Shown: positions 39,211 through 63,598, counted from the first letter of the stretch. The stretch: 64,000 nt of DNA from Leucoraja ocellata (GCA_036785375.1 JAWMAR010000081.1:3100001-3164000), one strand, 5' to 3'. The notes: generated from the letters alone by a model not told the origin. Program-made: numbers and translations.

Positions 39211-40103
39211 TTCTAGAACATTCACAGCATTGTGGGAGTAGCTTCACTAGAAGGTATGCAGCAGTTCAGGAAGACCGCTCACCGCCACCAGGAAATTAGG
39301 TTGTGTAAAGGGCCTGTCCTATTTACGCAATTTTTTCGCCGACTGCCAGCACCCGTCATTGTCGCAGCAGGTCGCTGAAAATTTTCAATGTGTTGAAAAT
39401 CCAGTGGCGACCAGAAAAAGGTACGACTATTTGGGCGATTACTCATGACCATACAGGCGTCACCCCGCGACATGTCTGGAAAGAATGGTGGAACAACCAT
39501 GTGCCACACTAATGTGCTGGGAGAAAATGTCACTGTTGATAGGAAAATCTAATGTTCATCTGGGACTGCCAGAACATCTATCAATGGAAAGTGAAATCAT
39601 CCTTGAATGTAAGCTTGAGCAAATCTATTCAAATGTGCAAAGTATTTCTGAAATTATAACTGAACTATCATTAAGAGATGATCTGCTATAGAACCTGGTG
39701 AATTTAAAGAGAAAATATATCCCGAGTGAAGGGCACTTGTCTTGTCAATGAAGATGTTTTGTTGGGTAAGTGTAGTAATTATTAGATCATATGGTAATAT
39801 ATTTAAGGTTTCCTACATAACCGTGGCAGTTAGATTAAAAAGACGTGTTAGAAGAAATGTTTGTGAGCCAGAGGAATTTTCACTGCTAACTTGGACAAAA
39901 TAAATTCCCAAGTCTAAAATGGTTCAAGTTCCTCTTTATTTTTGCTGTCAACAACAAAACATAAATGCTTATCTTTTTCCTTCAGACCTTTTTTGATTGA
40001 TAAACACTGTTGGCCATACGACAAGGTGTGGGTTCCTTTTGGAAAAATGTTAATTCATTTTCTGAATCCAAGAATTTTATATTTTTTCCAATGCACATGC
40101 TAG

Positions 40104-40187
40104 AATCATCATTCACCACAAGTAAAGCCTTCATCACTTCAAATCCAATTACTGATGCAGACAACAAAGTTCAACAGCCATTTGCAG
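40104..40187 (+). CDS. Exon R10 (84 nt): (E)SSFTTSKAFITSNPITDADNKVQQPFA
   Basis: atgctag acceptor, GCA G|GTAA donor, symmetric phase 1. Confidence 0.75.
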
Positions 40188-40779
40188 GTAATTTTAATTT
40201 TAAACACAGCAAAAAATACCTAACTTTTGTTTAAAGATAAATTGTTGGCATCTCTTAACATTGGGAAAACACAAACCATGCAACTTATCTCTTCCTTTGC
40301 TGGTTATCTTTCCAAATTTATAATATGTAGTAAACATGATACTCAAAGTTTAGATTGGCACAGGAAAGGACAAGGAGCTTGCCAGCTTACTTATTCGGAG
40401 GACACCCAATTTTAAATAATTTTAAAAACAGACTTGTCAAATTGGGGTCAAATATTTGAGAACATGTAGTTCTGCCTAAAATGCACGAGTTTCCATTGTG
40501 CTAAATGGATATAATGTGTTTGAGAAATTGGGGAAGACTATTTGTATTATGTGGGCTGAATAGGTTATCCCATGTAGTTATTCAAAAAGACCTTTATTTT
40601 CCGAAAATCCTGCAGGAAAATAATTTTGTTATTAAGGGTCTGAAATTTTCTGGGCCTAAATCCTCTATTCCCTATTAACACATTTGTTTTCTTAACATGA
40701 TTTTCTATAACGTGAGGTTTCTTAGATATGCAGCTATAGCATCATAGCAGAACTACCTGTACCATAGTAACAATCTCGA

Positions 40780-43380
40780 TATAGATAGCTAATGAGACCA
40801 CATCTGAAATGTTCTCGACAAGTCTGGTTTCCCTTTCTAGAAAAAGTTGTGTCAGAGGGAGTGCTGTGAAGATTTATCAGATTAATTCCTGGGATGATGT
40901 TTGTTATTTGAGAAAGCATTAAACGGAGTAGGCATGTGTCCTCTTTAATTCAGAAGAATGAGAAGTGACCTCATTGAAATATATAAAATTCTTGCCTACG
41001 TGACAGTGTAGATTCAGAGGTGATGTTTTCCCAAGCTAGGTTCCCAGATATCACATCATCAAACCACGGGATCAGTCATTCAGGACAGCGATAACAAGAA
41101 ATAGCTTTATCCAGGTGGTAGTCAGTCTTTAGAAATTTCTAACAAAGAAGATTGTGCAAGTTTAGTTGTTGAGTATATTCAAGGCAGAGATTAAAAGATA
41201 TTTAGACATTAAGGGATTCAAGAGACAAGGAGTCAATATGAGAAACTGGTGTTGATGGAAAAGGTCAGCTGTCATCTAACAAAATTATGATATGCAGAAT
41301 TAAAAACCTCTGTCTGTGTTATGTTCTTGTAATCAGAGGGAATATGGAAAGAAAAAGACCGATAAAGTAGCATGCGGAATTCTGGCAATCAAAATGTCTT
41401 GGCAATATCTTTCTAAACAATTAAATGGTGGTAAAAAGAGATGTGGCCAATTGGAGATCATAAAGGAGAGTTACATTTGAAGCCAGAGAACATCAATGAG
41501 TCAGAATGGATGTGGCAGCTCAATACCAGGCATCAATGAGACCCTGTGGACCACAATCAGTGAGATTTGTGTTCCAACACAATCTGTAACTTATTAGCTG
41601 GCATATCTTTCACTCTGACATTTTAGCAAGATAGGGGATCAACCCTGCTTCACTTGGAAGGGCATGGTCACTATAATCAAGTGCCAAATTTGTGAATCTG
41701 AAAAACAGTGCTTCATCCATTCTAAATAGAAAAAAACCCCACAACATACGTTATATCGAGCCAAGGGATCCCATGACCAAAAAGGCTAAACAAACCTGCA
41801 GCTTCGCAACATCTGATTATGAATGACGGTAGGCAGTTAAATAGCTGATAGGATGTTTTTGGGTTACCCGCAAGAATAGCAGAGTCCATTAAGTGAGTCG
41901 CAAAGTTAAGGTCAACCTAAAGCACCAAATGCTTTTAGTTGGCCTCCTCCTAAGAGCCCAATCATTGCACAAGCCAGTCTTCATCCAATTTGGTTCACTC
42001 TATGTAATATCAATGCACAATTGAGAGCACTGGATATAGCAAAAGCTATGAGACCAAACATCCTGGCTGTAGTAAGATTTTCACTCAAGTACCAACTGTG
42101 CTCCATCCAAGTTGTCCCAGTACATTTATAGTATTGGTATTTACCCGAAAATTACGTCTGGTTCATGAAAAGTTCATGAAATCTTTCAAAGTTGGAATAT
42201 ATCATTGACAGTACTATCTGGAGGCACGCACTCACCACTAACCTGCTCAACGTTGCCCAGTTTGGATTTTGCCGAGACTGCTCAGCTCCAGAACTCACCT
42301 TTGACAGTGTAATTAAGTTAACTTTCAGAAATTGCACGTGTTTGACCACACCACATCAAAGATCCAATTGACTGATTGAAAATGGCACAAGGAACTCTGG
42401 TGAAGATGGTCAGGGGGCATCAAAGGAAAAATATGTAAGGATTTGGAGTCATATCCTGCACAAAAGAAGGTGGTTGCGGTTGATAGCGATCAATTATCGC
42501 AACTCCTGTTCATTGTGATTCCTCAGCGCAGTGTCCTGGCCAAACTATTTTCAATTCCTTCATCAACAACCAATTATAAAATCATGAGTGGCATTGTTCA
42601 TTGATAATTGCATAATGTTACTTCCATTCGCAACTCTTCAGCAAATGGAATGATCCTTGCAGAAAGACCTGGACGATATTTAGGCAGAGGCTGGAAGTGG
42701 GAAACGAATATCACACCTAAATCATAGACCATTGGCAGCAAGAGATTGTCTAACATTCAAATGTATTACCATCATTGAGCCCCAGATCATCAACAGCCTG
42801 GGGGATCATCATTGATCAGAAACTCAACTGCACCTGCCACATAATTATGCAGATACAAGAGCAAGATAGAAACTGAGTATCTTTGGGCAAGTGACAGCCA
42901 GAAGCCATTCCACCATCAATAAGGCACAAGTCAGGAGAACAGTGGAATACTCTCCACCTGCCCTCAAGAAGCTTAACACCATCAAGGGCAAAGCAGCGTA
43001 TTGATCAGTAGCCCATCTCCCACACTAAACATGCATTCCCTCTTCAACTGGTGCACCTGTGGCTGAAGTGTTCGCCATCTAGAAAATGCTTGATTTTTTT
43101 TTCTCACCTGGCCTACTCTGATATCAGTATCAAACTCATGATCTCTATAATCAAGAAGGACACAAATATTAAATGCATGGATACACCACCTTCTGGAAAT
43201 TTCCCATTAATCTTACTTGATCCTGATATGAAAATAAACCTTTGTTCCTTCGCTTCCCTGGAGCTAATTCCTTGCCTTCTCTACTCAACAGCATAGGTGA
43301 GTACTTTCAACAGCAATCTGTGTTTTTATAGGAGAGTACTTTAACCAGCAGGACTGCAATGGGATAAGGAGGTGGCAGTG
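40780..43380 (+). mobile_element. Old degenerate CR1-group LINE remnants (a 3' fragment about 40780-41330, then an older RT-bearing remnant)
   Basis: atgagaccacatctgaaat..., gtgtcctggccaaactattttc, attgatcagaaactcaactg, aaggcacaagtcagg..gtggaatactctcc (KAQVR..EYSP); many stops. Confidence 0.6.
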
Positions 43381-44194
43381 TAAACATAGAGTAAATTATT
43401 TTATTTCCAGACCAGCCCTAAAACATGCCGAGTGATTTATTTTGCTCATGAAATCTCTGAATGAATTCTTTGTTGATACTTCATGGAAGATCTTGCATCT
43501 GTTTTGAATCTGTTGAATGGCCAACCACAAAATTACTATGAAGTAGTAACATGAAGTTCAGACACTACACAGAGATGCAGCGTATTATGGACAGCAATAT
43601 CTGTTTTCTTCCCTTTAGAGTACAGGGCAAGAACTGGCAGTTCTTTATTAACTGAAGCTGATTGCATGTGATGTGTTTAAACCTGTCATTAGTACACAAA
43701 AATATAACAGCAGATGTAAGCTATTGATGTCATTGTTTCTGTGAAAAAGTGATGCACGTGCACTGATTTGAATTTTGGATGCGTTAGGACAAGCTTGACT
43801 GAGAAACAAAAAAAACTGCTGGTTCTGGAAATCGGAAATAAAGCAGAAAATGTTGGGAAAATCTAACAGATCAGTTGGCATCTGTAGAGAGAGCGAGGCA
43901 GGTTAACTTTTCAAGTCATTGACCTTTAGTCAGAGCAGTTTGGTGATATGGGTCAAACAGGCAAACGGGCCTAACTTTGATGAGTATCTTGGTCAGCATG
44001 GATTAGTAGGGCTCAAGGACTTGCATCTGAGCTGTATGACTAAAGGTTATTAAGCTGAAACATTGACTCTTCTCCCACAATGGAAATGTTGTTGACAAAA
44101 CAGTTTGTCTTGACCAACAAACTGCAGTGCACGTAATATTCAGATAGGGTCAGAAGTCCAAAATGTGGCCTCCCACTTAATTTTAACACAGTAA

Positions 44195-44765
44195 TACACA
44201 ATACAATACCATACAATACCGTTTATTGCCATTTGAACCTAAGTTCAAACAACATTTCGTTTCTGCAGTCATACGAACAAGAAAAAAAACCCAAGACACA
44301 CAATTAACACAATTTACACGGACATCCATCACAGTGAATCTCCAAACACCTCCTCACTGTGATGGAAGGCAAAGTCTTGTCTCTCCACAGTACTTTATTC
44401 TTTCCCGATGTTAAAACCCCCGGCGGGCGATGGTAAGTCCCGCGGCCGTTAAAGCCGTGCTGGGCGATGTAAGGCCCCGCTCCGGATCATTTTTAACCCC
44501 GCGATTCGGGCGGGAGAAGTTGCCGTTGCGGCAGCTCCGAAAAGTGGTCTCCCACCAGGGACCTGCAAGCTCCCGATGTTACCGTCCACCAGACCTGTAG
44601 CTGGAGCCTCCGAAGCTCTGAAGTCGGGTAACAGCCGCGCGCCACCACTGCTCTCCACGCTCCAAAGCTGGCCACCTCCGCGATGGTGTGTCCGCCGGCT
44701 CTGCGACTGGGGCCCCAGGTTGATTTCGGTTGGAGGTCGCTCCACGGTGCTAGGCCCCAACGACT
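44195..44765 (-). mobile_element. GC-rich non-autonomous retroelement, relative of 12732-13698
   Basis: (caatac)-like tail, tttattgccatt...ctgcagtcatac, shared cacagtga..tccaaacacctcctcactgtg hairpin and gggcgatggta block. Confidence 0.6.
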
Positions 44766-44874
44766 GCGTCACCAACTTAGGTACCTTGATGCTAAAACTC
44801 CAATGTTTCAAGATTTTCCTTATATCTTTATGGTTGATTGTTTCCTTTAACTTATCTTCATTCTAGATATTAGT

Positions 44875-45215
44875 GATGCCATGGTGCAGCTAGCAGAGCT
44901 GTTACCTCATATCCAGCATTCCTGGTGCAATCCTGATCTCTGGTGCTTTCTGTGGAGTTTACATGCTCTTTATTTGACAGTATGGGTTTCCACCAGATGG
45001 TTTTGTTTCCTCCCACATACCGAAAGCGCATGGATTGGTAGGTGGATTGGCCATTGTAAATTACCCCTTGCGTGCAAATGAGGAACATTGATCGAAATAT
45101 TGTGAAAGGGAAATGGGTTAGAGTAGGATTAGTATAAAAATGACTACTTGATGGTCGAATATGGATATACATGTGGTGAAGGGCCTGTTTCCATGGTGTA
45201 TCTCTGAACTAAACA
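44875..45215 (+). mobile_element. Degenerate HE1-like V-SINE
   Basis: catggtgcagc..., tggagtttacatgctct..., ttcctcccacat, tgtaaattacccctt, tail gggcctgtttccatggtgtatctctgaactaaac. Confidence 0.7.
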
Positions 45216-45291
45216 AAAATGCACTTTTATCAGTATCAGTGCTGCTATACTGCATAATTGGAAAATTGCATTTAATATTTTTGTTATCTAG

Positions 45292-45366
45292 ATTATGCAC
45301 TACTAGATTCTGACACTCCGATTACTGTGTATGAAGTTAATAACCCTGAAGAGAAAGAATCCACAG
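45292..45366 (+). CDS. Exon R11 (75 nt): (D)YALLDSDTPITVYEVNNPEEKEST
   Basis: tttttgttatctag acceptor, ACA G|GTAT donor, symmetric phase 1. Confidence 0.75.
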
Positions 45367-46648: not shown

Positions 46649-46765
46649 TGCCAGCCTTTGACACTTCTGAAGTGTTCACTTTAAAGTCAGACAATGAGTT
46701 GGTGGCCTCCGACTCTTCACATGTGTTCAATCCAATCACACAGACCACAGATACTGAACCAACAG
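46649..46765 (+). CDS. Exon R12 (117 nt): (V)PAFDTSEVFTLKSDNELVASDSSHVFNPITQTTDTEPT
   Basis: Strong polypyrimidine tract ttccttcttttcctcttag, ACA G|GTAC donor, symmetric phase 1. Confidence 0.8.
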
Positions 46766-49399
46766 GTACTTCGGACATTATGTGTGCTTTGTATGTAAGG
46801 CTGAGGAATGCGTACATATACGTGTGTGTTAACACCTTTGCTGAGTTGTCAAAAACATGGTCATGGGCTGTACACACAATACCATACCTTTTGCAAAGTA
46901 GCTTTTACATGTTTTGCATGAAATCATTCAATGTCACGGTTTCCATGAGGTTGCTTTTGCTTGGTCACCAATGCACTCAATCTAGTCTTATTCTGTGAAG
47001 GCCTCTCACTTCCACTAAGACATTGGCTCTGAGAAGATGGACAAGGTCCTGAACTGCATTCATGGAAGCCATGCTCTAATGTAGTCATGTGTTTGCAAAA
47101 AAGCTTAAAAAAATAATTTAAAATTAAATATTCACAATTTTAAAATGTAAAATAATAAACCATTTAAAACATAAGAAACTTTCAAAGTGATACAAAGTCT
47201 ACCCTCTAGAGAGGATAGGTTGCGGAAGCATTTATAACGGAATTTGGTTCGAGCAGGTGGAGCGTCCCCACAGTTACACTGCAGAGGTTGTTGAAATTGA
47301 CAAGCAATTGCTGTGATCGACACTTAACTCTTTTAAACAAAGTAACAAACAGCTTTAGTATTTTTAGCTTACAGTAACAAAAATAGATTTTAGCTGTACA
47401 CTTAGTAGGCAGTTTAGTGTCTTTGGAAGGAGAAGTGGAATTAATGTTTTAAGGTCGATGTCCTTTTAACCTGAACTCAGAATTATGCACAAATAAGCTT
47501 GTGGTGTTCTGATTTCCTACAATATCCCATAGATGTGCTGGTTGGTAGATTTATTGGCCGCGTGTAGCAGAGCATTAAAATCAGGGGTGACTTGATAGGC
47601 ATGAGGGGAAAATAATAAATCGGATCAAGGTAAAATAGTGTAAATGAGTAGTGGATAGTTGGCAAAGACTTAATGGGCAGAAGGATACATTTAGTTCTGT
47701 ATCTCTCGATAACACTGTGACTCTATGATCTGGATTTCTACATGCATGCAAGCATGTACAGTAGTTCTGAATTTCCTGGTTCTGCAGTTCCACTCATAAC
47801 TGCTAACATTTTAGTGGAAATTTTGGATGATGGAGCAATCCACCACCGCAAGCAAATGTGCTTAGTTTTGTTGGAATATTTGGTCAACAATTCATTAATT
47901 GCCGTTTGGCTGTAAATTAGTTGTCATTTCATCGAGGTTACATTGTGAAGTTTATTGGGTCGAAATTAGTTTTTCTGTAGTGAAAAAATTGTTGCCAGCA
48001 TGAATTATTTTGAAGAATTTGAATTAATGAGTGAAATATTATCTATAATTTAATATTGTAAGAGGCCACATGGTGCACATCTGAATAGATAGATAGAATT
48101 TAGATAGATAGAATTTATTGCCACACAACCAGGGTCGGTGGAATTTGGGTTGTCAGCAGCAGGACAATAATAAAGAACATACAGCCAAAATAAAAATGTA
48201 ACACAAACATCCTGTATACTGTATATTGAATGTTTTATGGTGAAAGGATAAGACCAACAATACAATCTGGTTACGTTATAATGATGCCCAGTGGAACATT
48301 TATTTTACTGAGAATTTAAGACTTTTTATTTGGCTTCCTTATCGTCAGCTGCAGACTATGAGGGGCCAAATTATGGCATTCCTAATGTGTTCAGTTCAAT
48401 CACTATATTTGGAAATAATATGGGAGTTCCATTCCTGGCATATAGTCAGGAATGTACTAAATAATCAACAGGATATGTTCAGGTTTGCATGGTATCAAAT
48501 AGTATGCCACATAGATGCTATGCTGCACATTCTTAGTGTTCATTTATTGTTCATTGTACTTTGCATAATTTATATTTGTTGGCACTTCACCGTCTTGCAT
48601 GATTGTCATTTGTCACTACACAAAATAATTTTGGGGGAAAATAGCAATTTGCTGCATCATTCATCGTATTTCAGCACTTAAATGATGTGTGTTGAATTCT
48701 GTGGTCAAACAATTCACTTCATGAAGCTTGGTGACTGTGCTTGGGTCTAAAATGTCTAACAGCCAGTTATGGCTTGAATGAAAAATATTTGACATTGTTT
48801 GGTTTTCCATTTGTTTTCCTATTGCTTTTGTACTGGTTATTTTAAGTAATATTTAATTAATTACCATAATGACTAGGCATAGTTCATGATTTTATGACAT
48901 GACTAAATAGAGTAGTTCTAACTTGGGAATTGTTCCAATTTTGAAATCCGAGAATGAGATCAATTCCAAAACAGTTCTATTTTCCAATGAAGTCGAGTTA
49001 GGCAAATATCGGTATTGATACAGCTCAGAGTTCATTTTCCCTGATCTCACAGTTCTCCAAGCAGCATTCTACTTGCTCTTACCCAGAAACATGGATAGGA
49101 CAGGTTTGGAGGGATGTGGACCAAATGCTGGCAGGTGGGACTGGCATAGCTGGGCCATGTTGGCCGGTATGGGCAAGTTGGACCGAATGGCTTGTTTCTC
49201 ACAATGTATCACTTTATGACTCTATGACTCTGTGAAACTGACTTCAATTCCTTCTTGGGCAGTTCCTCAGGATCCATGGTGATATGCTTCTACTCCAGTT
49301 CTTTGGATTTTAAGGTGGCTGAAAATTCTTTGGTGTAAGTCACAGACTATGTCAGCTGAGTCAGGTGGAACCTTATGGGCTAAGTGACATTGTAGTGTG

Positions 49400-50870
49400 G
49401 AATTTTGTGCATTCCTTATGCTGTTTATGATTGACCTTCATGTCCTCTCATCATGGACCAAGGATTCCCATGGGTTGGTGAGGATGTCACAATATTTCCT
49501 ATAGATTTTTAGAAGTTCTTGGAATAACTTTGTCCATCCCCTCAGAAAACGTTTTCCCCCAACTAGTTCCTAGTGATGCTTATGTCAAGAATCTTTTGTT
49601 TGGCATGTGGATTTGGATCATCTAGGTGGTTGGTTGAGTGTGACATTTGCCCAGGAGAGAATGTTGGCATAGTATTTCTTACCTGCCAATTGGAGTGTTG
49701 TGGATCCAGCAGTGGTGGTATCCAGTGCATTGAGGAGCCTACTGATAACGCTTGAACATTATAGGAAGTTGAGAATTGCTGCTGCTCAGTTAACCATGAG
49801 CTTGATACTGGTTTGAGATATTGGTCATCAAAGATAATTTTCCGGCTGTACGGGAAGCTGTGGTATCTTTCATCAATTATTTCTGCTTTTGATGTGATAT
49901 GGCTGCTAAGATGTGGAAGTGGTCCATGCTTTCCAAGCTCCATCTATAAACCATGGTTCTTAGTGAGGTAGATATGTAAAGGGCCTTACCGATGTTTAGT
50001 GCATGTTCCATCCTTTTATTTGCTCCTGTAAAAGAGCCAACAGTAACTTGTAGATTTCAGTAGCCACTTTCGTAAGTTCTGTTAGCAAATTAAATTGATG
50101 AAGGAAGATGAGGGAGAATCTGCTAGTAGTGAAGACAATGAAGGTTGGATCTTCTATAAATTAAACACATTGCTGTTCAAAATCTATTGGTATTGAAGTG
50201 AAGAATACAGATAGGGCACTGGATAGCACAGCTTGTTTGTCCCTGGAGTACATAGATTGTGCTTGAGATGGACCTGTTGGTTACCATCACAACATGCATC
50301 TCTTTGTTTCACATGCTTTGAATAGTGTTGAATTTCGTAGGACAGCTAGATTTGTGAAGGATTCTCCATAATCTTCAATCATATGCCCCTGTGAGTATAA
50401 AAAGGCCTAATACAGATGTTGGTAGTATCTTTACACTGTACCTGGGAGGACCCGTGATTTTCTCTTTAGTATATAACAGGGAGACACTCTATTTACTATG
50501 ATTGTTGTCTCCATTCTTGCAGACGATCAAGCTAGACGTGTCTCTGAGGTTCTGTGCCCTGCTATATCCCTGGATGGACACTTGATACCTCATATTTTTA
50601 ACGACATTAAAGAAAACCATTCAGCACAGTGACATTGGATCAGTGATATTGTGAAGAAGTTAGAAAGTACTATCTTAGGGATCTAGCATCTTTCCACCCT
50701 TTGCAGATCTCTAACAGTTCCATTACCAGTACCCTGCAGCCCGTTATCCCACATTGATGACAGTCATTGATGTAGTGAACTTACCAACAGAGCCATCGAA
50801 GTCTATAGCTGCTTGGAGCTGTCTGCCATGACCATCCAATAGGTTTCATCCTCCTACTGGCTAGATTACA
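49400..50870 (-). mobile_element. Old degenerate LINE, probably RTE-like
   Basis: Minus-strand remnants KIIFDDQYLK..., KQKIL..., and a G..GGQ..F..LK-like tail; heavily decayed, so clade is tentative. Confidence 0.4.
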
Positions 50871-51242
50871 GCAGTTAGGCTAGGCTAGGCTAGGGCGTGC
50901 ATTATGTAAAGATCATAGGGCCAATATCTAGTGAAAAGTTGCCAATAAGGGGAATGGGTTTTATCATTATTTGTTATTAAATTTCATTAGATTTGATTAA
51001 ACATTTACGTTAATTTCTTTCACTTTTTTAACAATGTTATTATTAACATTATCTTATGTATTGTTTTTTAGATGAAAACTATTAGTTACACACATTTCAT
51101 TCTATTTAATCAAAACTCAAGAATAAGGCAATTTTACTACATTTGCTACATTGCTTTGGTTTTCAATAGTCATTGGGAGAACTTGTGTGTTAACTTTAAG
51201 TGAGATTAAGAATGTTCTATTATTTCCTTCTTATCCACTCAG

Positions 51243-51383
51243 ACTATGAGGTGCCAATGTATGGCATAAATAATGTGTCCACTTTAATGGCAGACCATGA
51301 AATTCCAGTTACTGACACCCCTAATGTGATCTATCCAATTCCAGAACCAGAATCTGTTACGATAAGTGATATCGAACCTACAG
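51243..51383 (+). CDS. Exon R13 (141 nt): (D)YEVPMYGINNVSTLMADHEIPVTDTPNVIYPIPEPESVTISDIEPT
   Basis: ttccttcttatccactcag acceptor, ACA G|GTAC donor, symmetric phase 1. Confidence 0.85.
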
Positions 51384-51681
51384 GTACTTGTGAGAATGTT
51401 TGTCTCAGTTGAAAATATTGTGTGTTTTAATTATGTAAAGGCACAATTCTATGAAATGAACAATTCACTGCATATCTTCTGAGATATAAGATTTTGCTTA
51501 TCCTTGATGGGGTTAGTTGGTCAATGCTCTTTTTTGATAGAGCTCAATGTGTGCCTGGCTCTGTTTACCAATTATGGCTATATTGTTAGATAGCATCAAT
51601 TATGCTATGTGAACTGCTAGTTTGTTGTATTTTAATGAAAGATTAAGAATTTAGTATCTGGCTTCTTTCTTATCCCTTAAG

Positions 51682-51905
51682 AAACCAATCATTGATACTC
51701 CTATTAATCTCATGTTCTATACAACAAACCACTGACACTCCCAATATGGCAAAGAAGTTCCAGCACCTGAGCCAACTACCTTTCAATTTATAGAAGGTAG
51801 ACAAAAATGCTGGAGAAACTCAGCGGGTGAGGCAGCATCTATGGAGCGAAGGAAATAGGCAACGTTTCGGGCCGAGACCCTTCTTCAGATTTATAGAGGT
51901 CACGT
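51682..51905 (+). pseudogene. Dead repeat exon, frameshifted and interrupted by a 94-bp insertion
   Basis: Same upstream motif (attaagaattt..ttctttcttatccc), IIDTP / TTDTPNM / VPAPEPTTFQFIE in shifting frames; insertion 51795-51888 flanked by atttataga. Confidence 0.7.
51795..51888. mobile_element. Penelope-like-derived short insertion with 9-bp TSD
   Basis: aggtagacaaaaatgctggagaaactcagcgggtgaggcagcatctatggagc...tttcgggccgagacccttcttcag; TSD atttataga at 51786-51794 and 51889-51897; near-identical to 26308-26368. Confidence 0.8.
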
Positions 51906-52480
51906 GTGCTTTGACAATATTTCAATTTTGATCGCAACTTCATGATGAAATAAATAATACTTGCATGTTTAGTTTTGTCCAAAGGTAACACAAATATTGG
52001 TTGCCTTGGGCATGAAATGCATTTGATGAATCTTGGTGTCTATTTGCCAAGTTAAATGGAGCTTAAGTGTTAAAATTCTGTTTAATTATTGTGCATCCTT
52101 GCACAATTATTGTGCAATGTGCATCCTTCATATTTATAGATTGTGCTTAGCTGTCATGTTTAATCAATCTTTACAAGTGATTGCATAATGTTGCATGGAA
52201 TATCTTTTATAACAGTTAACTAAAACATCTGGAATTATATTAAATTAATATATCACTCATTATATTATGGATTACTCTGTATTACTTGAACATGCATTCA
52301 GCAATTTATGTTTGCAATGGGAGATATTTATTGTTATTGTATCAAAAAGGAGGATTTTTTCTGCAATAATACTTTATTCTAATAATGTATATACATACAA
52401 TTGAATTCTTGAATGCATGGGTGTGTTATCTCAATGGGGAATTACAACATTGTGTCATAATTCCTTCTTATTCCCCTCAG

Positions 52481-52597
52481 ACCATGCCATGCCAACCTTT
52501 CACACTCCTAAAACAATTACTGTAATATCAGGCTCTAAGTTGCCAAACCCTGGCATGGTCAATCCAATCACACAATCTGAACGTCCTGAAGTTACAG
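52481..52597 (+). CDS. Exon R14 (117 nt): (D)HAMPTFHTPKTITVISGSKLPNPGMVNPITQSERPEVT
   Basis: ttccttcttattcccctcag acceptor, ACA G|GTAC donor, symmetric phase 1. Confidence 0.85.
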
Positions 52598-53242
52598 GTA
52601 CTTCTGACAATGTTTCTGTCTTGTTGTTGAATTGTGAGGAAATTAGGAAACCTGTTGCAATAGCTCTATCTTCTATTCACATTTAATGAATGTTTGTTAC
52701 TTTTGTGAGACACGTTTGATAGCCTGTATGAATCTTGCATGCAACAAGTTAAATATATTGACATAATTTTTAAAAATGAACAGTACATTGCCTATTCCCT
52801 GGAAATAGGCATTGCATTCTTTGTAATCTGACTCATTGAACACAGAATTATGAAAGAATAGAAAGCTAGTCAATGGTATGACGAATAAATGAGATTTATT
52901 CTGCAAAGGTATGGCATTGTAATGATATAAAAGAAATGTGTTGAATAATTGGTGGTGGTACATGTCAGAGGGTGATAGGTGGAGGGTTGTTTTTCAGGTT
53001 GAAGGTCTGTAAGGTTGGTACTGGGTCCATTGTTATTTGTTACCTACATTAACAATTGGGATGAGAATATAGTTGCATTGTTAGTAAGTTTATGGATGGG
53101 ACCAAATTGGTGGTACATTGGTAAAGAATGATGTGATGTAATCAACTAATCATAACGGTAAAGAAATATATTCATCAAAGCAAGTGACTATTTTAATGAG
53201 GAATTAAGAATTTTGTCTCTGCTTTTTTTCTTATCCCTTCAA

Positions 53243-53380
53243 TACATACAATGCCACCATCTAATGCTAATTTCTTCAAATCACTCTCTAGCTGTAAACT
53301 AAAACCCACCAAGCCACCTAATTTATTCAATAGAATTTCTGCATCAGAACGAGCCAACAGTCCAGTTATTGATGTTGTAG
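53243..53380 (+). pseudogene. Repeat exon with lost acceptor (138 nt): HTMPPSNANFFKSLSSCKLKPTKPPNLFNRISASERANSPVIDVV
   Basis: Family upstream motif ends ttatcccttcAA rather than CAG; frame open; GTA G|GTAT donor intact. Confidence 0.65.
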
Positions 53381-53866
53381 GTATTTTGAGGATATTCATG
53401 TATTTTTCTGTGAACCCAGGGTTGGAGTAGTTGCCTGTTGAGAATTGTGTAAAATAACAAAGACATATGTTGTAAATGCTATACCCCACTCAGTCACACC
53501 TTGCACAGTTAATGTAGGAATTTTAAATGTGGTACTTTTTTCTGTTAGATTATTTGACCAGTGTTTTTCTTGAAGTTTAAAGAGTGTGCTTGACTGTAAA
53601 CTTTCAATTTGATACTTAATTTGTTCTAATTGTTGAATAATAATTGGTATTTATATTGTGTTGCTGCATGGGCTGTCTGCTTATTAGCACTTTCATCAGA
53701 AATCTTCAGAATAATACATTTATTTGGCTGAAAATTAAGTAATGAATTCTTTAGTCATGTATGAAAATAATTAACTACATAATTTTGGTATTCCATCGCA
53801 TCCACTTAAATTTAATCTAATGATAAAGGGTGTTTTACTCTACATACTTTTTCATTCAAAAAACAG

Positions 53867-54007
53867 ACATATATTGCTATCAATGGCTCAATGGTTGAAT
53901 GAAACCATTATGGTCAGGCCATAACCTCTTGGTCTTTGACTCTGCATATGTGTTCAATCCAAACCCCAAATCTGTAAAAGCTATAACAAGAGATGCTGAT
54001 GTTACAA
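53867..54007 (+). pseudogene. Repeat exon with in-frame TGA (141 nt): ...KPLWSGHNLLVFDSAYVFNPNPKSVKAITRDADVT
   Basis: aaacag acceptor, family length 141, TGA at 53896-53898, weakened donor ACA A|GTAT. Confidence 0.65.
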
Positions 54008-54814
54008 GTATTATCGACCATGTTTGTATGTTGATTGTTCGTAGTTGTGCTAAATTAAAAGTTTAAACTTCAGCTTAGAAATTCGGTTGCATGAAAATTG
54101 ATTGTGTCTTGAGTGCAACACACTTGTGACCATTTCAGGGACAAATATGACCAGTCATTTCCACTAGTGATTTGATGCTGTTTCCATTATCATTCTGGTG
54201 CGATGCCCCTTTAAAGCTTTGACCGGCACGAGCTAGCCTTGGGCATACTAGGAACAACCAGATTTTTACAATTCTGCTATTTCTTTAGTAGCTTGATTTA
54301 AAGAAGGCTCTCTTAAATTGGACCCTCCCAACACTAGGAGCCCAATTTGAGCAGGGGCATATTAATTTAGTTAGTACTAGCTCTCATCATGCTCTGCCAA
54401 CCCACCCATCTCACTCAACCAACAGACCCCCAGTCCCTACTCCTCAACCAAATGATGACCTTTAGCTAACGCCACACCATCGCTTCACCTCACCACTGAA
54501 TACCAACACAGCCATGACTTAATTGGACTCTCAATCATGCACTCCCAAGACCATGAAGGGGTGTTCAAATACCATTCTATCCATGTATCCCAATCAGATT
54601 CCTACACTCTCTACAACTCAATTAGCTCTGGACACATCCCTGCAGCAACCCCCTGTCCCTCTCCCTGCTCAATTTCTATATTCCTGTCTCTGCCTGTCCA
54701 TTTTCTATCCCTTGAGACACTTCTCCCAGACCCCAGTCAACCATCGACTTCGCCAAACAGCCAACATCCACACTGCCACACCCCTCTTTTTGCTTTCACT
54801 CAAGCATCCTGCAA

Positions 54815-55186
54815 GATGATTGCTGTCGTATGTCGGGGCATTGAGTGTAAGAGTCCGGAGGTCATGATGCAGCTTAAAATTATGAATGGCATAGGTAGGA
54901 TGGAAAAATCAAATACTAGAGGACCTAGCCTTTCAGGTGAGAGGGGCAAAGTTTAAAGGAGATGTGCGGGGCAGGTTTACGCAAAGGGTGGTGAATGCCT
55001 GGAATACGAAGTCGGGGGGTGGTGCTTGAGACAAATATGATAGTGGCATTTAAGAGACCTTTGAATCAGCATATGGATATGCAAGAAATGGAGGGTTATG
55101 TATTATGTGTAGGTAGATAAGAGATTGTCTAGCATCATGTTTGGCTGAAGGGCCTGTTCTTGTGCTTCACTGTTCTATGTTCTATA
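54815..55186 (+). mobile_element. CR1 LINE 3' fragment with internal deletion
   Basis: RGIECKSPEVMMQL joined to SNTRG..L..RG, QRVVNAWN, (ttctatg) tail. Confidence 0.75.
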
Positions 55187-55874
55187 ACAGTTCATGGGCC
55201 TCGCAGCCACACAAGACTGTTTGTGCCTCCTTGTGTACTGATTTTGTTACTCATCAGCCGTTTACAACGTCAAATCCAAAGTGATTAAATTTGTAGACCT
55301 TTGTCAGAAATTTTCATTTAAATGCTGTGCTTATGGTGCATTTGTTAGTTTGTGTGAATCTTTGTTGCAATTCATTCAGTGTCAATTCATACCATATATT
55401 AAGGGAGCAATCCACTGCATATCTGTATTTACCCATCTTGCCTATCTTTGTTGGTTTAGTTTGTCAATGTGCTTACTTATTGACTTTGGAGTTTGTCTGT
55501 CTGTTCAGTGTTTGTGAACGGATTATGACTTTATTGTTGTGAGATTTATTGAATGATAATTAGCTTTGATGTAGTGAAACACTATTGCATGGATTATTTG
55601 TTGTTAAATCACTCATATTTGATGCATTATGATATACATGCAATTCATTAGTCATTGTGTTATACATTGTTTAGCAGCAAAAGAAAAGAAAAATGCTTTT
55701 CATAATAAATGGTTGCAATTGAATATGTATGTTTTTATAATGAACAAATTACCTTTTGGTTTATTTTATATTCTAATGGCATCGACGAATCAAACAATAT
55801 CAGCAAAATAATAAATGATTTATTTTAATGAGAGGTTAAGAATTTTTGTGTCTGGCTTCTTTCTTATTCCCCAG

Positions 55875-56012
55875 GCTACATGGAGCCAACCGCTGACACT
55901 CCTAACATGTTCAGAACAAGTTCAGGGACTAAATCACAAATCATTGACACTCCTGTGTTCACTTCGATCCCTGAATCTGTACCAACTAAAATACGAGTTA
56001 CTGAAGTTACAG
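55875..56012 (+). CDS. Exon R15 (138 nt): (G)YMEPTADTPNMFRTSSGTKSQIIDTPVFTSIPESVPTKIRVTEVT
   Basis: ttctttcttattccccag acceptor, ACA G|GTAC donor, symmetric phase 1; frame differs from listed ORF 55815. Confidence 0.85.
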
Positions 56013-56614
56013 GTACTTCTGACAATATTTGTGTCTGAACTTGGGAGTGAGGTAAATCATAGTTGCATGTTGAAATTTGTGCTTAAGTGTCTGAAAGTGG
56101 AGACACACGCTGCAGTTGCCATGCCACTCCTTTCTAGTTTAGTGTTCAGTCAGTCTGCGTGTGAGATGTATATGTTAAGTCACTGTCTTGCATGGAATCC
56201 ATTCATTCCAGTTGCACAATTTATATGGAATGAACAATCCACTGCAATTCACAAAGACTTGAACCACCTTTGCTTTTTTTCTGATGCATTACTTGTCAAT
56301 GTCCCTTCCTCATCTAGTTTATAGATTGCGCTTGGCTATAATTTGTCATTCAGTTTATTAAATCTACTTTACACCAAAGCTTTTTAGATTATCATTGGCT
56401 TTTGGGTTGTGGAAGCAATGTTATGCATGGACTGTCTGTTGTCATCTCACTCAAATGCAACATTTTCTGTAAATAATTAATTTGTTAATATGTATGGATT
56501 GTTTTATGAAAAGTATATTGTCAATTTGTGTTTGTGTTGGAATTCCGTGGTACCTTGGGGAGGTTTACATGGGAGATGTTTTTTAAAAATCCTGCTACCT
56601 TTTTATTTCCTCAG

Positions 56615-56758
56615 ACCATACAGTATCATCTTCTCAAACTCCTAATGTGGTCACCTTATTGCCAGGTCATAAGCAGCCAGTGTCTGACTCTCCTCCACAT
56701 GTGTTGAATCCAGCCATAAAATCTGAACCAGCTAAAATAAGATTTAGTGAAGTCACAG
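56615..56758 (+). CDS. Exon R16 (144 nt): (D)HTVSSSQTPNVVTLLPGHKQPVSDSPPHVLNPAIKSEPAKIRFSEVT
   Basis: tttttatttcctcag acceptor, ACA G|GTAC donor, symmetric phase 1. Confidence 0.85.
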
Positions 56759-57059
56759 GTACTTTTGACATTACTTGTGTCTTGGGTGTGAGCTCCAGAA
56801 TGCTGTACTATGACAATTATGTGTTCAGGTCACTTGTGTGAAGCCTATATCTTAATGATTATGCATAGGGGGCATTTGTTGCTTCACTGTTTTGCATTCA
56901 ACTAATGCAAAGCCTTGGCACCGATTATAGGAAATAAGCTGTCCAATGCACTCCTTGTGGAATTAATGGATTTCCATGTACCTGCTGGATTATTTAATCA
57001 ATGTGCTTCTTTCATGAAATTTGTGCTCTGCAATTGAGAAGGATAATGAGGTAATGGGG

Positions 57060-57560
57060 AATAGATCAGGAGCGTGATGGAATACTCTCCACTTGCCTGG
57101 ATGAGTGCAGCTTCAACCGCATTCAAGAAACAAGCAGGCTATTATACAGGACATAGTAGCCCACCTGATAGGGAGCCTAATCCAAACCCATCACTGACTT
57201 CACCACTAATGCGTTGTAGCAGGAGTTTATACTGTCGACAGGATGTGTGCAGCAACTCGCCACAATTCCATAGACAGCAGCTTCCAAACCCACAATCACT
57301 TCCAGCTAGAATGACTAAGGCAGGAAAACATGGGGAGATCACCACCTCGAAGTTGCCCTCCCAGCCACACATCATCTTGACGTCGATATATATCACCATT
57401 GCTTCAAATTTGATGGGCAAAATCCTGGCACTTCCTCTCTTCCTGTGTGGATATACCTACAGCTCAAGGTCTGTAGTGGTTCAAGAAGGCATCTGACTCC
57501 CATCTTCTCAAGAGCAATGGACAATCAATTCAGCCTGTAAATTCCACATCCCTTGGATGA
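57060..57560 (+). mobile_element. Old CR1-group LINE 3' remnant
   Basis: RSVMEYSPLAWMSAAST, same family as 42930-43300. Confidence 0.6.
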
Positions 57561-58189
57561 ATACAATTAATGTGTCAGTGTGTTTGCAGGAAATAAATAA
57601 TAGAGGTGGCATGTGGACATTTTTTAAATGAAAGGATTCACTGATAGGAATTAATAATCAAAGAATATAATTTCCATATGAATCAGATTGGTTTATTGTA
57701 GGCAGCTTTACAACTTAAAACACAATGTTGGAAGGTTTGTTGAATGCCGTTTTAAAGGTACCTTCCAGTAGTAATTTGGATAAATACATGAAAGATAAAA
57801 GGAACAGTCAAGGAATAATTGTGTGCATCTCACAATGAACTGCAATAGTCAAAAGGCCTCCTCCAATGCTATAATTTGAATATTCCTGATGAAATAACGT
57901 GTCAACCTGCTGCTGAAATGTTGTGAAGCTTATTGAATGAATATTGTCTTTGAATATTATCTAATGGAGAGTCTAATATCACATAACATTTTTGAATAAC
58001 AATTAAATAACTTTTCATTTTATATTGCACATAAAATGTTGCACTAATTGTTATATTTGAATCCATTGAATATTATTATATGATAACAGAAAAATAAGAC
58101 TGTTCATTTAAGTCTGCTGCAAGGACAACCAGTGAATGCTGCTACCACACAGCTTCAGCAAACTGGTTTTGAGCCTCATTTCAGATCAC

Positions 58190-58842
58190 AGGATCATGTG
58201 ATAGGAGTAGAATTAGGCCATTCGGCCCATCAAGTCTACTTTGCCATTCAATCATGGCTGATCTATCTCTCCCTCCAAACCCCATTTTCCTGCCTACTCC
58301 CCATAACCTCTGACACCCGTACTAATCAAGAATCAATCTAGCTCTGCCTTAAATATATCCATTGACTTTGCCTAAATATATCCATTGACTTGCTAAATAT
58401 ATCCATTGACTTTGCCTTTCGAAATGCATTTCGTTGTCTCTGTACTGTACACTGACAATGACAATTAAAATTAAATTAAATTGAATCTGAATCTCCACAG
58501 CCTTCTGTGGCAAAGGATTCCATGGATTCACCACTCTGACTAAATAAATTTCTCCTCATCTCCTTCCTTAAAGAATGTCCTTTCATTCTGAGATTATGAC
58601 GTCTCGTCATAGACTCTCCCACTGTGGAAACATCCTCTCCGCATTCCCTCTATTCAAGCCTTTCACTACTCTGTACATTTCAAGGAGGTCCCCACCTCAT
58701 TTTTCTAAACTCCAGCGAATATTGGCTCAGTGCCGCCCTCTTATGTTAACCTATTCATTCCTGGGATCATTCTTGTAAACCTCCTCTGGACCCTCTCTAG
58801 AGCCAGTACATCCTTTCTCCGATATGGCGCCCAAAATTGCTC
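58190..58842 (-). mobile_element. CR1 LINE 3' fragment containing a small Rex-type tail insertion (about 58421-58494)
   Basis: Reverse complement of QFWAPYRRKDVLALERVQRRFTRMIPG and VVNPWNPLPQKAVE; inserted gcatttcgttgtctctgtactgtacactgacaatgacaat...tgaatc matches 6206-6270; local triplication of aaatatatccattgact. Confidence 0.8.
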
Positions 58843-59505
58843 TATTTGTGGAGTTAACATTCTTCATGTGACAATATGCATTTTCTCTAGATGCTGCAGT
58901 TTATTAGCCCAACTCAATGTGCTAAACACAAACTGTTGGTTGAACTCAGCGGGTCAGACAGTATCTGTGAAGGGAAACGGACAGATGGCATTTCAGATTG
59001 AGGCCTGTCTTCAGACTGGTGGAGAAGAGGGCAATCACCACTAACCCATCACCTCTTTCTAGCAGCAATCTCCCCTTCACCCCAGTCCAAGGAAGGGTCC
59101 CGACCCAAACCATTCTCTGTCCATTTCCCTCAATGGTTGCTTCCTGACCCCTTGAATTCCTTCAGCTGTTTCTTTCCCATGATTTCAGCATATACAGTCT
59201 CTTGTTTCTTAATAACCGCAATCAATAACTCTAATGTAAGAACTGTGTGGCAAAAGAAGAGCGGTGACCTGTTGGTATGTGAGTGAGTGTTGCAAGGAAA
59301 TAAGAGGCAGTATGGAACTGACGAGATTGCTCTGTTAGGTTCCCCTATAATTCCAATGGACTGGATGACTTTGTTCCGTACTGTATTAAATCATTAAGTA
59401 ATGGTAGTGTTCAATGTGCTAATGTACATAGGAAACTACTAAGCATCAGGTGTACATTTACAAGATATTTAGAATTTTGTAATTTGACTTCCTTTTTATC
59501 CTTAG

Positions 59506-59649
59506 AAGACCATGAATTGTCAACTTCTCACACAACTAAAGTGTTCACTTTAATATCTGGCCATGAGCGGCAAGCCACAGACATTCCCAGTGTGATCAAT
59601 CCAATCCCAGATACTGATCCTGCTAAGATAGGAGAGGCAGAATTTACAG
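59506..59649 (+). CDS. Exon R17 (144 nt): (E)DHELSTSHTTKVFTLISGHERQATDIPSVINPIPDTDPAKIGEAEFT
   Basis: cttcctttttatccttag acceptor (TAG/AAG tandem), ACA G|GTAG donor. Confidence 0.85.
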
Positions 59650-60129
59650 GTAGTCCTAACAATCTGTGTATTCTATGTTTGAAGTAAACAATAGAGTAAA
59701 TAATTAAAAGTGTATGCTTAGGTTTATCACAATTAAGGAAAAAAATCTGGACACGTGCCACAGATGCTATGTTATGCTTTTAAATTAATATTTATGTTAA
59801 TATTTGAATTGGTTGTGTATAAGGCATGGAAGAGCCTGGAAACACAGACATGCTGTGCCCTTAGATGTCTGTCCTTAACTTGCTTCATCATTGTTGGCAA
59901 CAATGTGAGTGATTGCTGCAAGGAAAAAACAGGCGGTATTGAACTGATGGGATCCCTCTGTTAGGTTCTCATATAATTCCCATGGGCTAGTGGAGTTGTT
60001 CCATACTCTATAAATAATTAACTAATGGTAGTGTTCAATGTGCTAATAAACATAGGAAACTACTCGGTGTCAGGTGCACGTTTAGAAGATATTTAGAATT
60101 TTGTAATTTGACTTCCTTTTTATCCTTAG

Positions 60130-60273
60130 AAGACCATGAATTGTCAACTTCTCACACAACTAAAGTGTTCACATTAATATCTGGCTATGAACGGCAAGCT
60201 ACAGACATTCCCAGTGTGATCAATCCAATCCCAGAACTTGATCCTGCTAAGATAGGAGAGGCAGATGTTACAG
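60130..60273 (+). CDS. Exon R18 (144 nt): (E)DHELSTSHTTKVFTLISGYERQATDIPSVINPIPELDPAKIGEADVT
   Basis: Same splice signals as R17, open frame. Confidence 0.85.
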
Positions 60274-60743
60274 GTAGTTCTAACAATCTGTGTATTTTAT
60301 GTTTGAATTAAGCAATGGAGCAAATAATTAAAAATGCATGTTTAGGTTTATCACAATTAAGGGAAATAGTCTGCACACGTGCCACAGATGCCATACTAGG
60401 CTTTTACGTGAAAATTTGTATTGGTTGTGTGTAAGGCATGGAAGAAGCTGGAAAACACAAACATACTGTACACTTAGATGTCTGTCCTTAATTTGCTTCT
60501 TCTTTGCTGGCGACAATGTGAGTGAGTGTTGCAGGGAAATAAGAGGCGGTATGGAATTGATGGGTTCGCTCTGTTAGGTTCCCATATAATTCCAATGGGC
60601 TGGATGGCTTTGTTCCGTACTGTATTAAATAATTAACCAATGTAGTGTTCAATGTGCTAATGTACATAGGAAACTACTAAGCATCAGGTGTACGTTTACA
60701 AGATATTTAGAATTTTGTAACTCGGCTTCCTTTTTATCCTTAG

Positions 60744-60887
60744 AAGACCATGAATTGTCAACTTCTCACACAACTAAACTGTTCACTTTAATATCTGGCT
60801 ATGAACGGCAAGCCACAGACATTCCCAGTGTGATCAATCCAATCCCCGAATCCGATCGTACTAAGATAGTCGAGGCAGATGTTACAG
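60744..60887 (+). CDS. Exon R19 (144 nt): (E)DHELSTSHTTKLFTLISGYERQATDIPSVINPIPESDRTKIVEADVT
   Basis: Same splice signals as R17, open frame; not in the ORF track. Confidence 0.85.
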
Positions 60888-61365
60888 GTAGTTCTAACAT
60901 TCTGTGTATTTTATGTTTGACGTAAGCATGGAGCAAATAATTAAAAGTGCATGCTTATGTTTATCACAATTAAGGAAAAAAGTCTGGACACGTGCCACAG
61001 TTGCCATGTTATGCTTTTACATGAATATTTATATGAATATTTGTATTGGTTGTGTGTAAGCCCATGGAAGAGCCTGGAAAACACAAACATACTGTACACT
61101 TATGGTCTTTCCTTAACTTGCTTCGTCATTGTTGGTGACAATGTGACTGAGTGTTGCAAGGAAATAAGAGGGGGTATGGGACTGATGGGATCGCTCTATT
61201 ATGTTCTCGTATCATTCAAATGAGCTGGATGAGTTTGTTCCGTATTGTATTAAATAATTATGTAATGGTAGTGTTCAATGTGCTGATATACATAGGAAAC
61301 TACTTGGCGCAAGTGTATGTTCAGAAGATATTTAGACATTGGTAATTTGGCTTTTTTATCCTTAG

Positions 61366-61509
61366 AAGACCATGAATTATCAACTTCTCACACAACTAAA
61401 GTGTTCACTTTAATATCTGGCTATGAACGGCAAGCCACAGACATTCCCAGTGTGATCAATCCAATCCCAGAACCTGATCCTACTAATATGGGAGATACAG
61501 ATATTACAG
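61366..61509 (+). CDS. Exon R20 (144 nt): (E)DHELSTSHTTKVFTLISGYERQATDIPSVINPIPEPDPTNMGDTDIT
   Basis: Same splice signals as R17, open frame. Confidence 0.85.
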
Positions 61510-61781
61510 GTAGTTCTAACAATCTGTGTATTTTATGTTTGAAGTAAACAATGAAGCAAATAATTACAAATGCATGCTTAGGTTTATCACAATTAAGGAA
61601 AACAGTCTGGACATGTGCCACAGATGCCAGGTATGCTTTTACATGCATATTTATGTGAATATTTGTAATGGTTATGTGTAAGTTATGGAAGTGCCTGGAA
61701 AACACAAACATACTCAACACACAAATATCTTTCCTTAATTTGCTTCTTCGTTGTTGGCGACGATGTGAGAGAGTGTTGCAA

Positions 61782-63332
61782 CGAACAGTTACTTTGGATT
61801 GGATCCGTCTTCACTCAGGAGGACACAAACAATCTTCCTGATGTACTAGTGGCCAGAGGATCTAGGGTGACGGAGGAACTGAAGGAAATTCACATTAGGC
61901 AGAAAATGGTGTTGGGTAGACTGATGGGACGGAAGTTGATAAATCCCCAAGGCCTGATGCTTTACATCCCAGGGTACCTAACAAAGTGGCTCTAGAAATC
62001 ATGGACGCTTTGGTGATCATTTTCCAATGTTCGAAAGATTCAGGATCAGTTCCTGTGGGTTGGAGGGTAGCTAATGTTATCCCACTTTTTAAGAAAGGAG
62101 GGAAAGAGAAAACAGGGAATTATAGGCTAGTTAGCCTGTCATCGGTGGTGGGGAAGATGCTGGTGTCAATTATAAAAGATGAAATAGGGGCACATTTGAA
62201 TAGCGGTATCAGAATAGGTCCAAGTCAGCATGGAATTACAAAGGGGAAATCACCTTGACTAATCTTCTGGAAATTTCTGAGGATGTAGCTGGGAAAATGG
62301 ACAAGGGAGAGCCAGTGGATGTAGTGTACATGGACTTTCAGAAAGCATTTGATAAGGTCCCACATAGGAGATTAGAGGGCAAAATTAGATCACATGGTAT
62401 AAGGGTAGAGTGCTGACATGGATAGAAAATTGGTTAGCAGGCAGGAAACAAAGAGTAGGGATTGACGGGTCCCTTTCAGAATGGTGACTAATGGTGTACC
62501 GTAAGGCTCGGTCCTGGGACCGCAGCTATTTACAATATATATTAATGATTTGATGAAGGGATTGAAAGTAACATTAGCAAATTTGCAGATGACACAAAGC
62601 TGGGTGGCACTGTGAACGGTGAGGAGGATGATATGAGGATGCAGGGTGACTTGGACAATTTGGGTGAGTGGGCAGATGCATGGGAGATGCAGTTTAATGT
62701 GGATAAATGTGAGATTATCCACATCAGTGGCAAAAACAGGAAGGCAGATTACTATATAAATGGTGACAAGTTGGAAAAAGGGTAAGTACAGTGGGATCTG
62801 GGGAGTCCTTGTTCATCAGTCACTGAAAGTAAGCATGCAGGTACAGCAGGCAGTGAAGAAAGCGAATTACATGTTGGCCTTCATAACAAGAGGAGTTGAA
62901 CATTGGAGCAAAGAGGTCCTTCTGCAGTTGTACAGGGCCCTAGTGAGACCACACCTGGAGTATTATGTGCAGTTTTGGTCTCCAAATTTGAGGAAGGACA
63001 TTCTTGCTATTGAGGGAGTGCAATGGTTCACAAGGTTAATTCCTGGGATGACAAGAATAGGGGCTAAGCCATTTAGAATGGAGATGAGGAAATACCTTTT
63101 CACACAGAGAGTTGTGAGTCTATGGAATTCTCTGCCTCAGAGGGTGGTGGAGGCCGGTTCTCTGGATGCTTTCAAGAGAGAGCTAGATAGGGCTCTTGAA
63201 AATAGCGGAGTCAAGAGATATGGGGAGAAGGCAGGAACGGGGTACTGATTGGGGATGATCAGCCATGATCACATTGAATGGCGGTGCTGGCTCGAAGGGC
63301 CGAATGGCCTACTCCTGCACCTATTGTCTATT
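61782..63332 (+). mobile_element. 5'-truncated CR1 LINE inserted in one tandem unit
   Basis: GSVFTQED, WRVANVIPLFKKG..GNYRLVSL, YMDFQKAFDKVPH, KFADDTK, LVRPHLEY, FTQRVVSLWNSLP; ctattgt tail. Confidence 0.95.
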
Positions 63333-63454
63333 GTATTAAATAATAAAGTAATGATAATGTTCAACATGCTAATATACATAGGAAACTACTTAATGACGGT
63401 GTACATTCAGAAGATGTTTAGAATTTTGTAATTTGGCTTCCTTTTTATCCTTAG

Positions 63455-63598
63455 AAGACCATGAATTGTCAACTTCTCACACAACTAAAGTGTTCTCTTT
63501 TATATCTGGCTATGAACGGCAAGCCACAGACATTCCCAGTGTGACTAATCCAATCCCAGAACCCGATCCTACTAACGCAGGAGAGGCAGAATTTACAG
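63455..63598 (+). CDS. Exon R21 (144 nt): (E)DHELSTSHTTKVFSFISGYERQATDIPSVTNPIPEPDPTNAGEAEFT
   Basis: Same splice signals as R17, open frame. Confidence 0.85.

Follow-up and report, generated by a model that had tools for sequence, protein, structure and literature searches.

The long repeat exons of a gene in the skate Leucoraja ocellata consist of two similar halves and a tail, and in many of them an in-phase CAG stands at the seam between the halves, which raises the question of whether this inner CAG serves as a second splice acceptor. A first-pass annotation of the window, by which we mean the whole stretch of 64,000 nucleotides that was analysed (G000:C81:3100001-3164000 in a genome of 3.44 Gb), had proposed that the long exons arose by an internal duplication of 51 nt that retained an in-frame CAG, and that each middle exon may have a long and a short form, an option lost in the youngest copies. 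The window exons in question are called R12 to R21, and exon copies past the end of the window bear D names, numbered by window-based kilobase (Table 1).

Identity of the gene

On its plus strand, the window carries phase-1/1 exons with Pro/Thr/Ser-rich coding sequence. A protein search with the R13 exon alone as query gave no match. About 100 kb past the window, on the same strand and with no run of N between, three exons encode the TARSH_C domain (PF21731), each of them over the cut-off. Their best matches are shark and ray proteins with 90-94% identity, most of the named top matches being called 'target of Nesh-SH3' or abi3bpa; the exceptions in naming are one Heterodontus match labelled FNDC1-like and a Leucoraja model labelled mucin-2. 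The Leucoraja RefSeq protein P0202 contains R12 (38/38 aa) and R16 (47/47 aa) together with a C-terminal TARSH_C domain. Because of the downstream TARSH_C exons, their matches, and P0202, which joins R12, R16 and the domain, we identify the window gene as skate ABI3BP, or TARSH (target of Nesh-SH3). TARSH_C belongs to the same gene, the nearest named proteins are ABI3BP and not its paralogue FNDC1, and the gene has numerous short phase-1 exons and a Pro/Thr/Ser-rich middle whose length is varied by skipping. The annotation of the Leucoraja model called mucin-2 is hereby corrected to ABI3BP. A second TARSH_C locus, different from that of the window gene, is located on C183.

The window lies within a block of about 121 kb (G000:C81:3090177-3211059) that is found again, inverted, at C81:2717571-2835216 (L030-L042) with 98.4-99.4% identity, and the TARSH_C exons occur twice on C81. 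Both copies of the block end at an N gap, and each holds 17 young repeats, in differing order. The inverted block is likely an uncollapsed second haplotype; it does not differ from the first copy at any of the seven inner sites compared. Two intronic stretches of the window (about 3350-6150 and 61800-63300) we take to be decayed, reverse-transcriptase-like retroelement sequence, the second of which separates R20 from R21 within the young array.

Table 1. Repeat exons and inner CAG triplets of the skate gene; positions are counted from the first letter of the window unless a locus or contig is named.
Feature	Position	Strand	Description
Ten short repeat exons	24591..45366	+	69-90 nt, upstream; single-half ancestral type; matched by skate RefSeq proteins
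R12	46649..46765	+	117-nt phase-1/1 exon; inner in-phase CAG 46688-46690 (+42)
R13	51243..51383	+	141 nt; half 1 51243-51293, half 2 51294-51344, tail 51345-51383
R13 inner CAG	51291..51293	+	highest score among the five inner sites
R13 second in-phase CAG, +102	51342..51344	+	at the end of half 2, in Pro-Glu codons; corresponds, within the exon, to the +51 CAG
R14	52481..52597	+	117 nt; inner CAG 52529-52531
R15	55875..56012	+	138 nt; inner CAG 55923-55925
R16	56615..56758	+	144 nt; inner CAG 56663-56665
R17-R20	59506-59649, 60130-60273, 60744-60887, 61366-61509	+	young 144-nt copies; CTG at the seam
R21	63455..63598	+	young copy
Four decayed exon copies	48355-48471, 51682-51796, 53243-53380, 53918-54007	+	profile matches
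D76	L004:2909-2998; start C81:3176909		90 nt, 13 kb past the window
D78x	L004:4238-4377		outer AG broken, first half of 50 nt, open second half

Evidence for a 51-nt doubling

The pooled DNA self-identity of 12 distinct long exons is 0.46 at a lag of 51 nt, compared with 0.20-0.31 at 60 other lags, and identity at lag 51 exceeds that of codon shuffles (p<0.05) in 23 of 28 copies; taken singly, R15 (p=0.052), R16 (0.14), D64, D76 and D77 fall short. The two halves of R13 are 59% identical (p=0.0005). A profile built from short exons only matches both halves of the long exons, and with this the similarity between half-repeats and short exons, which the first-pass annotation had named as a check, is present. 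Significant self-similarity at one lag and the match of both halves to a single-unit exon are the marks of an intra-exon tandem duplication, and the proposed origin of the long exons by internal duplication of 51 nt is borne out.

The inner CAGs of R12-R16 lie in phase at the places given in Table 1, as had been described, and CTG is indeed present at the seam of R17-R21. The distance of 51 nt from acceptor to inner CAG holds for R13-R16 and not for R12, where it is 42 nt. The sum 141 = 90 + 51 applies to R13 and does not extend to the other exons: short forms of R12-R16 would be 75, 90, 66, 87 and 93 nt long, respectively, and 90 nt, although the commonest length among the short exons of the window, is found in only 3 of 10. 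A decayed short exon with a broken donor is located at window 34074-34163; Rhinoraja and stingray models include its orthologue as coding sequence.

R17-R20 form exon-plus-intron units of about 620 bp with a tandem acceptor, TAGAAG. In R17-type exons, splicing takes the first AG of this motif (144 nt), and the CTG thus stands 54 nt after that acceptor; Rhinoraja models also contain an R17-type form that is 1 aa shorter. At tandem acceptors of this kind, which stand at window 59504-59508 and in the other young copies, Rhinoraja and Hemiscyllium models show a one-residue difference. A second in-phase CAG, at +102, overlooked in the first-pass annotation, is present in R13 and in four of the five exons R17-R21 (R17, R18, R20 and R21).

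Context and strength of the inner CAG

Over seam positions -20 to -6 of 10 distinct long exons, the sequence matches the exonic end of half 2 at 0.58 and acceptors at 0.29; at positions -5 to -1 the two tie (0.54 for the end of half 2, 0.50 for acceptors). Since the seam matches the end of half 2, the doubled unit is exon sequence, with at most about 5 nt of acceptor copied and no pyrimidine tract. Pyrimidines occupy 9-12 of the 20 positions before the inner AG versus 17-18 at outer sites, too few to count as a tract. Of the acceptor that had been described as retained, the last 5 nt or so are the most that can stand; the tract is absent, and positions -20 to -6 are exonic. The seam CAG could stem either from the acceptor or from the Pro-Glu codons that close the unit, and a shared CAGA probably guided the doubling.

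For acceptor strength we used a matrix of our own making, built from 36 acceptors of the gene. The inner sites of R12-R16 score 1.9, 5.0, -1.8, 0.2 and 1.2, respectively, versus 9.6-15.8 for outer sites. Four of the five score like random AGs and below all 36 true acceptors; the R13 site, at the 86th percentile of 1944 window YAGs (R14: 39th), is below 34 of the 36. The +102 CAG of R13 scores 6.0, above the +51 site of the same exon.

Of 11 distinct long exons that are intact, 7 have CAG at the seam. The third base of the seam xCN codons is A in 7 of 10 (0.70), versus a mean majority share of 0.80 over 17 xCN columns, and the donor-adjacent silent column keeps its majority base in 10 of 10. 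Silent columns are a fair control for the seam CAG because the copies share ancestry, and against these columns no selection on the inner AG is visible in a comparison of paralogous copies only. CAG is found in 7 of 9 seam xCN-G codons, compared with 39% by codon use (p=0.02, in a test that ignores the kinship of the copies), an excess that speaks for selection. As far as sequence comparison can tell, the inner acceptor is likely unselected. In these exons, 50 of 919 codon boundaries carry a YAG in phase. No new intron by tandem duplication was found at the seam, where AC, GC or GG comes after the CAG in four of the five exons and GTC in R16, and splicing of an internal segment appears in no transcript examined.

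Use of the outer and inner acceptors

Transcripts were represented by Logan contigs from three runs of relatives (X1, X2 and X3), guessed to be RNA, each with a small share of the stretch; such contigs drop rare variants and give the major form only. The stretch was absent from runs recorded as RNA, two RNA-type runs of the same species contained almost nothing of it, and run X10 gave no match, a blank that says nothing about expression. A spliced contig of 1050 nt from run X1 contains all of R13 and all of R15, separated by exactly 117 letters, the length of R14. By X1 depth, 116 bases of R12, 141 of R13 and 117 of R14 are covered, R12 from its outer acceptor; R12 is also identical over 38/38 aa to Leucoraja and Amblyraja RefSeq proteins. 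The junction from 56012 to 56615 (GT..AG), which joins R15 to R16, is present in all three runs, and that from the end of R14 to the outer acceptor of R15 in X1 and X2. No short junction was found in these contigs, in which rare forms are dropped; junctions at inner acceptors, which the first-pass annotation had proposed to look for in reads, did not appear in the contigs, outer acceptors alone being joined.

The four decayed copies carry stops, broken splice sites or a frameshift, and they are skipped in contig X1, where R13, R14 and R15 are joined directly and depth is zero at 48314-48754 and 53165-54046. The copy at window 53918-54007 is an open 90-nt second half plus tail, directly after an inner-type CAG; a decayed first half precedes it, and its donor is weak. 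It is skipped in contig X1, is missing from the skate proteins examined, and is possibly a failed takeover.

Gene models of relatives were compared as 85 isoform proteins from 12 species, all of them automatic RefSeq predictions and partial as sets (for example, 15 of 23 in the Rhinoraja cluster and, for Amblyraja, 3 out of 30 or more models). Most isoform differences are whole exons or tandem sites of 1-3 aa, and whole-exon skipping is the main splicing mode. R13 and R14 (window 51243-52597) are skipped in each of the 3 Leucoraja models examined and present in 18 of 18 models from Amblyraja and Rhinoraja.

Three of the 85 isoform proteins are cut within a long exon. Hemitrygon model X2 (stingray; XP_072901276.1) is without the first 17 aa of the R13 orthologue, cut at the seam, and its short form starts at the position orthologous to the R13 inner CAG. 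Stegostoma model X8 (zebra shark; XP_048396826.2) is without the first 17 aa of one long exon, again cut at the seam. Hemiscyllium model X25 (XP_060689668.1) is without 35 aa and starts at the end of half 2, and therefore the purely exonic +102 site serves as well. Of the 20 Hemitrygon models with R13, one has it in the short form, compared with 0 of 18 skate models and 0 of 6 Mobula models, and contig X1 has the long form only. Short forms of R12-R16 are found in 0 of 21 skate RefSeq models, where these exons are always long or absent, and none for R15 or R16 is found in ray models. The short forms are predicted by automatic RefSeq models, one per species, and none was seen in RNA contigs. 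The claim that each middle exon has a long and a short form narrows to the R13 orthologue in one stingray model; in the contigs and models examined, R12, R14, R15 and R16 are long only and never use both acceptors in the manner of alternative 3' splice-site exons, which allows for rare use.

Probable takeover of the inner acceptor in D76

Wherever a model carries D76, in 21 of 21 cases among skates and 19 of 19 in Hemitrygon (40/40), the exon starts at the seam CAG, and it is identical over 29/29 aa to Leucoraja and Amblyraja models. It is preceded by 49 nt that represent a first half with 2 nt deleted; their mean alignment score is 36.3 against 7 first halves, compared with maxima of 23.4 for shuffles and 12.1 for 16 control acceptors. 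Read from the homologous outer AG, D76 runs into stops, and its inner site scores 10.0, like a true acceptor. An upstream AG at 76852, 57 nt before the start of D76, would give an open form of 147 nt and is used by no model. From the sequence and the gene models, the inner AG likely took over as the acceptor of D76.

D78x is omitted in skate models and appears in a short form in 19 Hemitrygon and 5 Mobula birostris models. In rays, this short form may stem from a genomic deletion.

Age and spread of the doubling

In chimaera proteins (3/3), identity at a lag of 17 aa is 0.047-0.049, below their own median, and the only period is 30 aa. Shark and ray proteins (9/9) have a lag-17 identity of 0.084-0.128 and a period of 47-48 aa. 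Because the repeats of the chimaera proteins are of 30 aa only, the doubling was likely a single event early in the history of sharks and rays that then spread by exon copying. The long-exon expansions are lineage-specific, the R17 type being found in skates, the D87 type in stingrays and mantas, and others in sharks (Hemitrygon P0051, Mobula P0077, Stegostoma P0061).

Past R21, beyond the window end, there are 12 further young copies, 11 of full length and one with a 30-nt deletion. The shortened copy, at L003:69-182 (window-based 64069-64182), has lost its 30 nt in frame across the seam and has a changed donor, and it is not in the Leucoraja model examined. The 17 young copies form a single clade, with 100/100 support and a mean identity of 0.91 for the 8 placed in the exon tree, and therefore their CTG is one event, a silent TCA>TCT change in the common ancestor. 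The option said to be lost in the youngest copies comes down to this one silent change in one clade; CTG is there, and older copies are also without the seam CAG (D77 TAA, D83 CGA, D87 CTG). Since 12 of 18 inner forks of the tree are open among the old copies, an order of origin is claimed only for the young clade.

Discussion

We consider it probable that an ancient 51-nt doubling in ABI3BP left a latent acceptor at the seam of the long exons, which is occasionally used, as gene models predict, and which was once promoted. The doubling itself is seen in the exons; we infer that an exon of 90 nt doubled its first 51 nt in tandem where a short stretch of CAGA matched, in an early ancestor of sharks and rays. 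An AG would have been copied and the pyrimidine tract not, so that the strong outer acceptor would normally win and a long exon result; the weakness of the inner AG and the long form of the main transcript are observed. As the seam keeps the frame, the inner AG could be used without harm, and the site is presumably neutral. Gene models point to low-level use where the context is best, namely in the R13 orthologue of a stingray and in one zebra shark exon, and to constant use in D76, before which the decayed first half is directly visible. When an outer half breaks, the inner AG likely acts as a fallback and becomes the true acceptor, bringing the exon back to 90 nt, as D76 would illustrate. 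The length of the disordered, Pro/Thr/Ser-rich stalk varies mostly by whole-exon skipping and exon copying.

A more ambitious account would make the seam a reversible length switch, with a fallback AG in every descendant exon, regulated in R13-type exons and promoted repeatedly (D76, D78x, the zebra shark exon) when the outer half broke, exons returning to the ancestral 90 nt by a shift of splice site. We regard this as rather doubtful; if it were true, the many copies across species would be a replicated natural experiment on the promotion of latent acceptors. It is quite improbable that the inner CAG is coding sequence only, a Ser/Pro/Thr/Ala codon followed by Asp or Gly that is never used in intact exons, the short models being reverse-transcriptase template switches or errors of mapping between the two similar halves. 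In-phase YAGs stand at 50/919 codon boundaries, the halves are 40-59% identical with CAGA shared at the seam, each short model is a single automatic prediction, and template switching at direct repeats is an artefact described in the relevant part of PMC8240250; however, D76 would then be unexplained, with its frameshifted first half before a strong inner acceptor in 40/40 models, and the cuts fall exactly at an AG in three species, including the exon with the best-scoring inner site.

Very unlikely, in our judgement, is the original proposal in its full form, in which each of R12-R16 keeps a functional alternative acceptor that gives a long and a short form, an option that was lost in the young copies. 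The absence of short forms from the skate models (0/21), and of R15 and R16 short forms from ray models, speaks against it, as do the RNA contigs of three studies with their outer acceptors only, the background-like scores of 4/5 sites without excess conservation, and the single origin of CTG in one clade. In its favour are the CAG in 7/11 distinct long exons, the kept frame, and the short R13 orthologue of the stingray model with the same cut in the zebra shark model. For the protein the consequence is minor, 17 residues of a disordered stalk that is already varied by whole-exon skipping. The latent acceptor traces, in a many-copy gene, a path from a small internal doubling to occasional use and to a takeover in which the extra half is lost to the intron, a series useful for the study of how exon borders move.

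Comparison with known systems

The middle of human ABI3BP is described as disordered and varied by cassette-exon splicing in the pertinent sections of PMC9239745 and PMC13518942, and to the extent of those sections the gene described here is alike, its isoforms too differing mostly by whole exons. Unlike human ABI3BP, the gene of sharks and rays has an expanded middle with two-half repeats of 47-48 aa, 17 near-identical copies of which are found in this genome. A literature search, thin in subscription journals, found nothing on two-half repeat exons of shark or ray ABI3BP, and exons and isoforms are not discussed in PMC6426741, a review of ABI3BP.

Alternative 3' splice-site exons are derived from constitutive exons in the account given in the main text of Koren et al. 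2007 (PMC1876488). The long exons resemble these in having a weaker competing AG inside the exon, a kept frame and a dominant outer site of ancestral strength. They differ in that the new AG there arises by point mutation, the word 'duplication' being absent from that main text, whereas here a 51-nt doubling provides it and the short form brings back an older exon length. Splice sites made by tandem genomic duplication are reported in the relevant parts of Hellsten et al. 2011 (PMC3265369) and PMC3443670. There, as here, doubled exon sequence supplies a usable signal and the extra copy can be removed; in contrast to intron gain of that kind, the acceptor alone is doubled in the skate gene, no new intron arises, and the extra copy is coding in most exons. 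With acceptors inside exons, duplication-made splice sites and intronization already described, this is an ordinary case of exon evolution. D76 comes close to the intronization of exon sequence outlined in PMC3443670, in that a former coding half-repeat is now intronic, and differs from it, as far as that outline goes, in that an existing intron was lengthened by an acceptor shift and no new intron was made.
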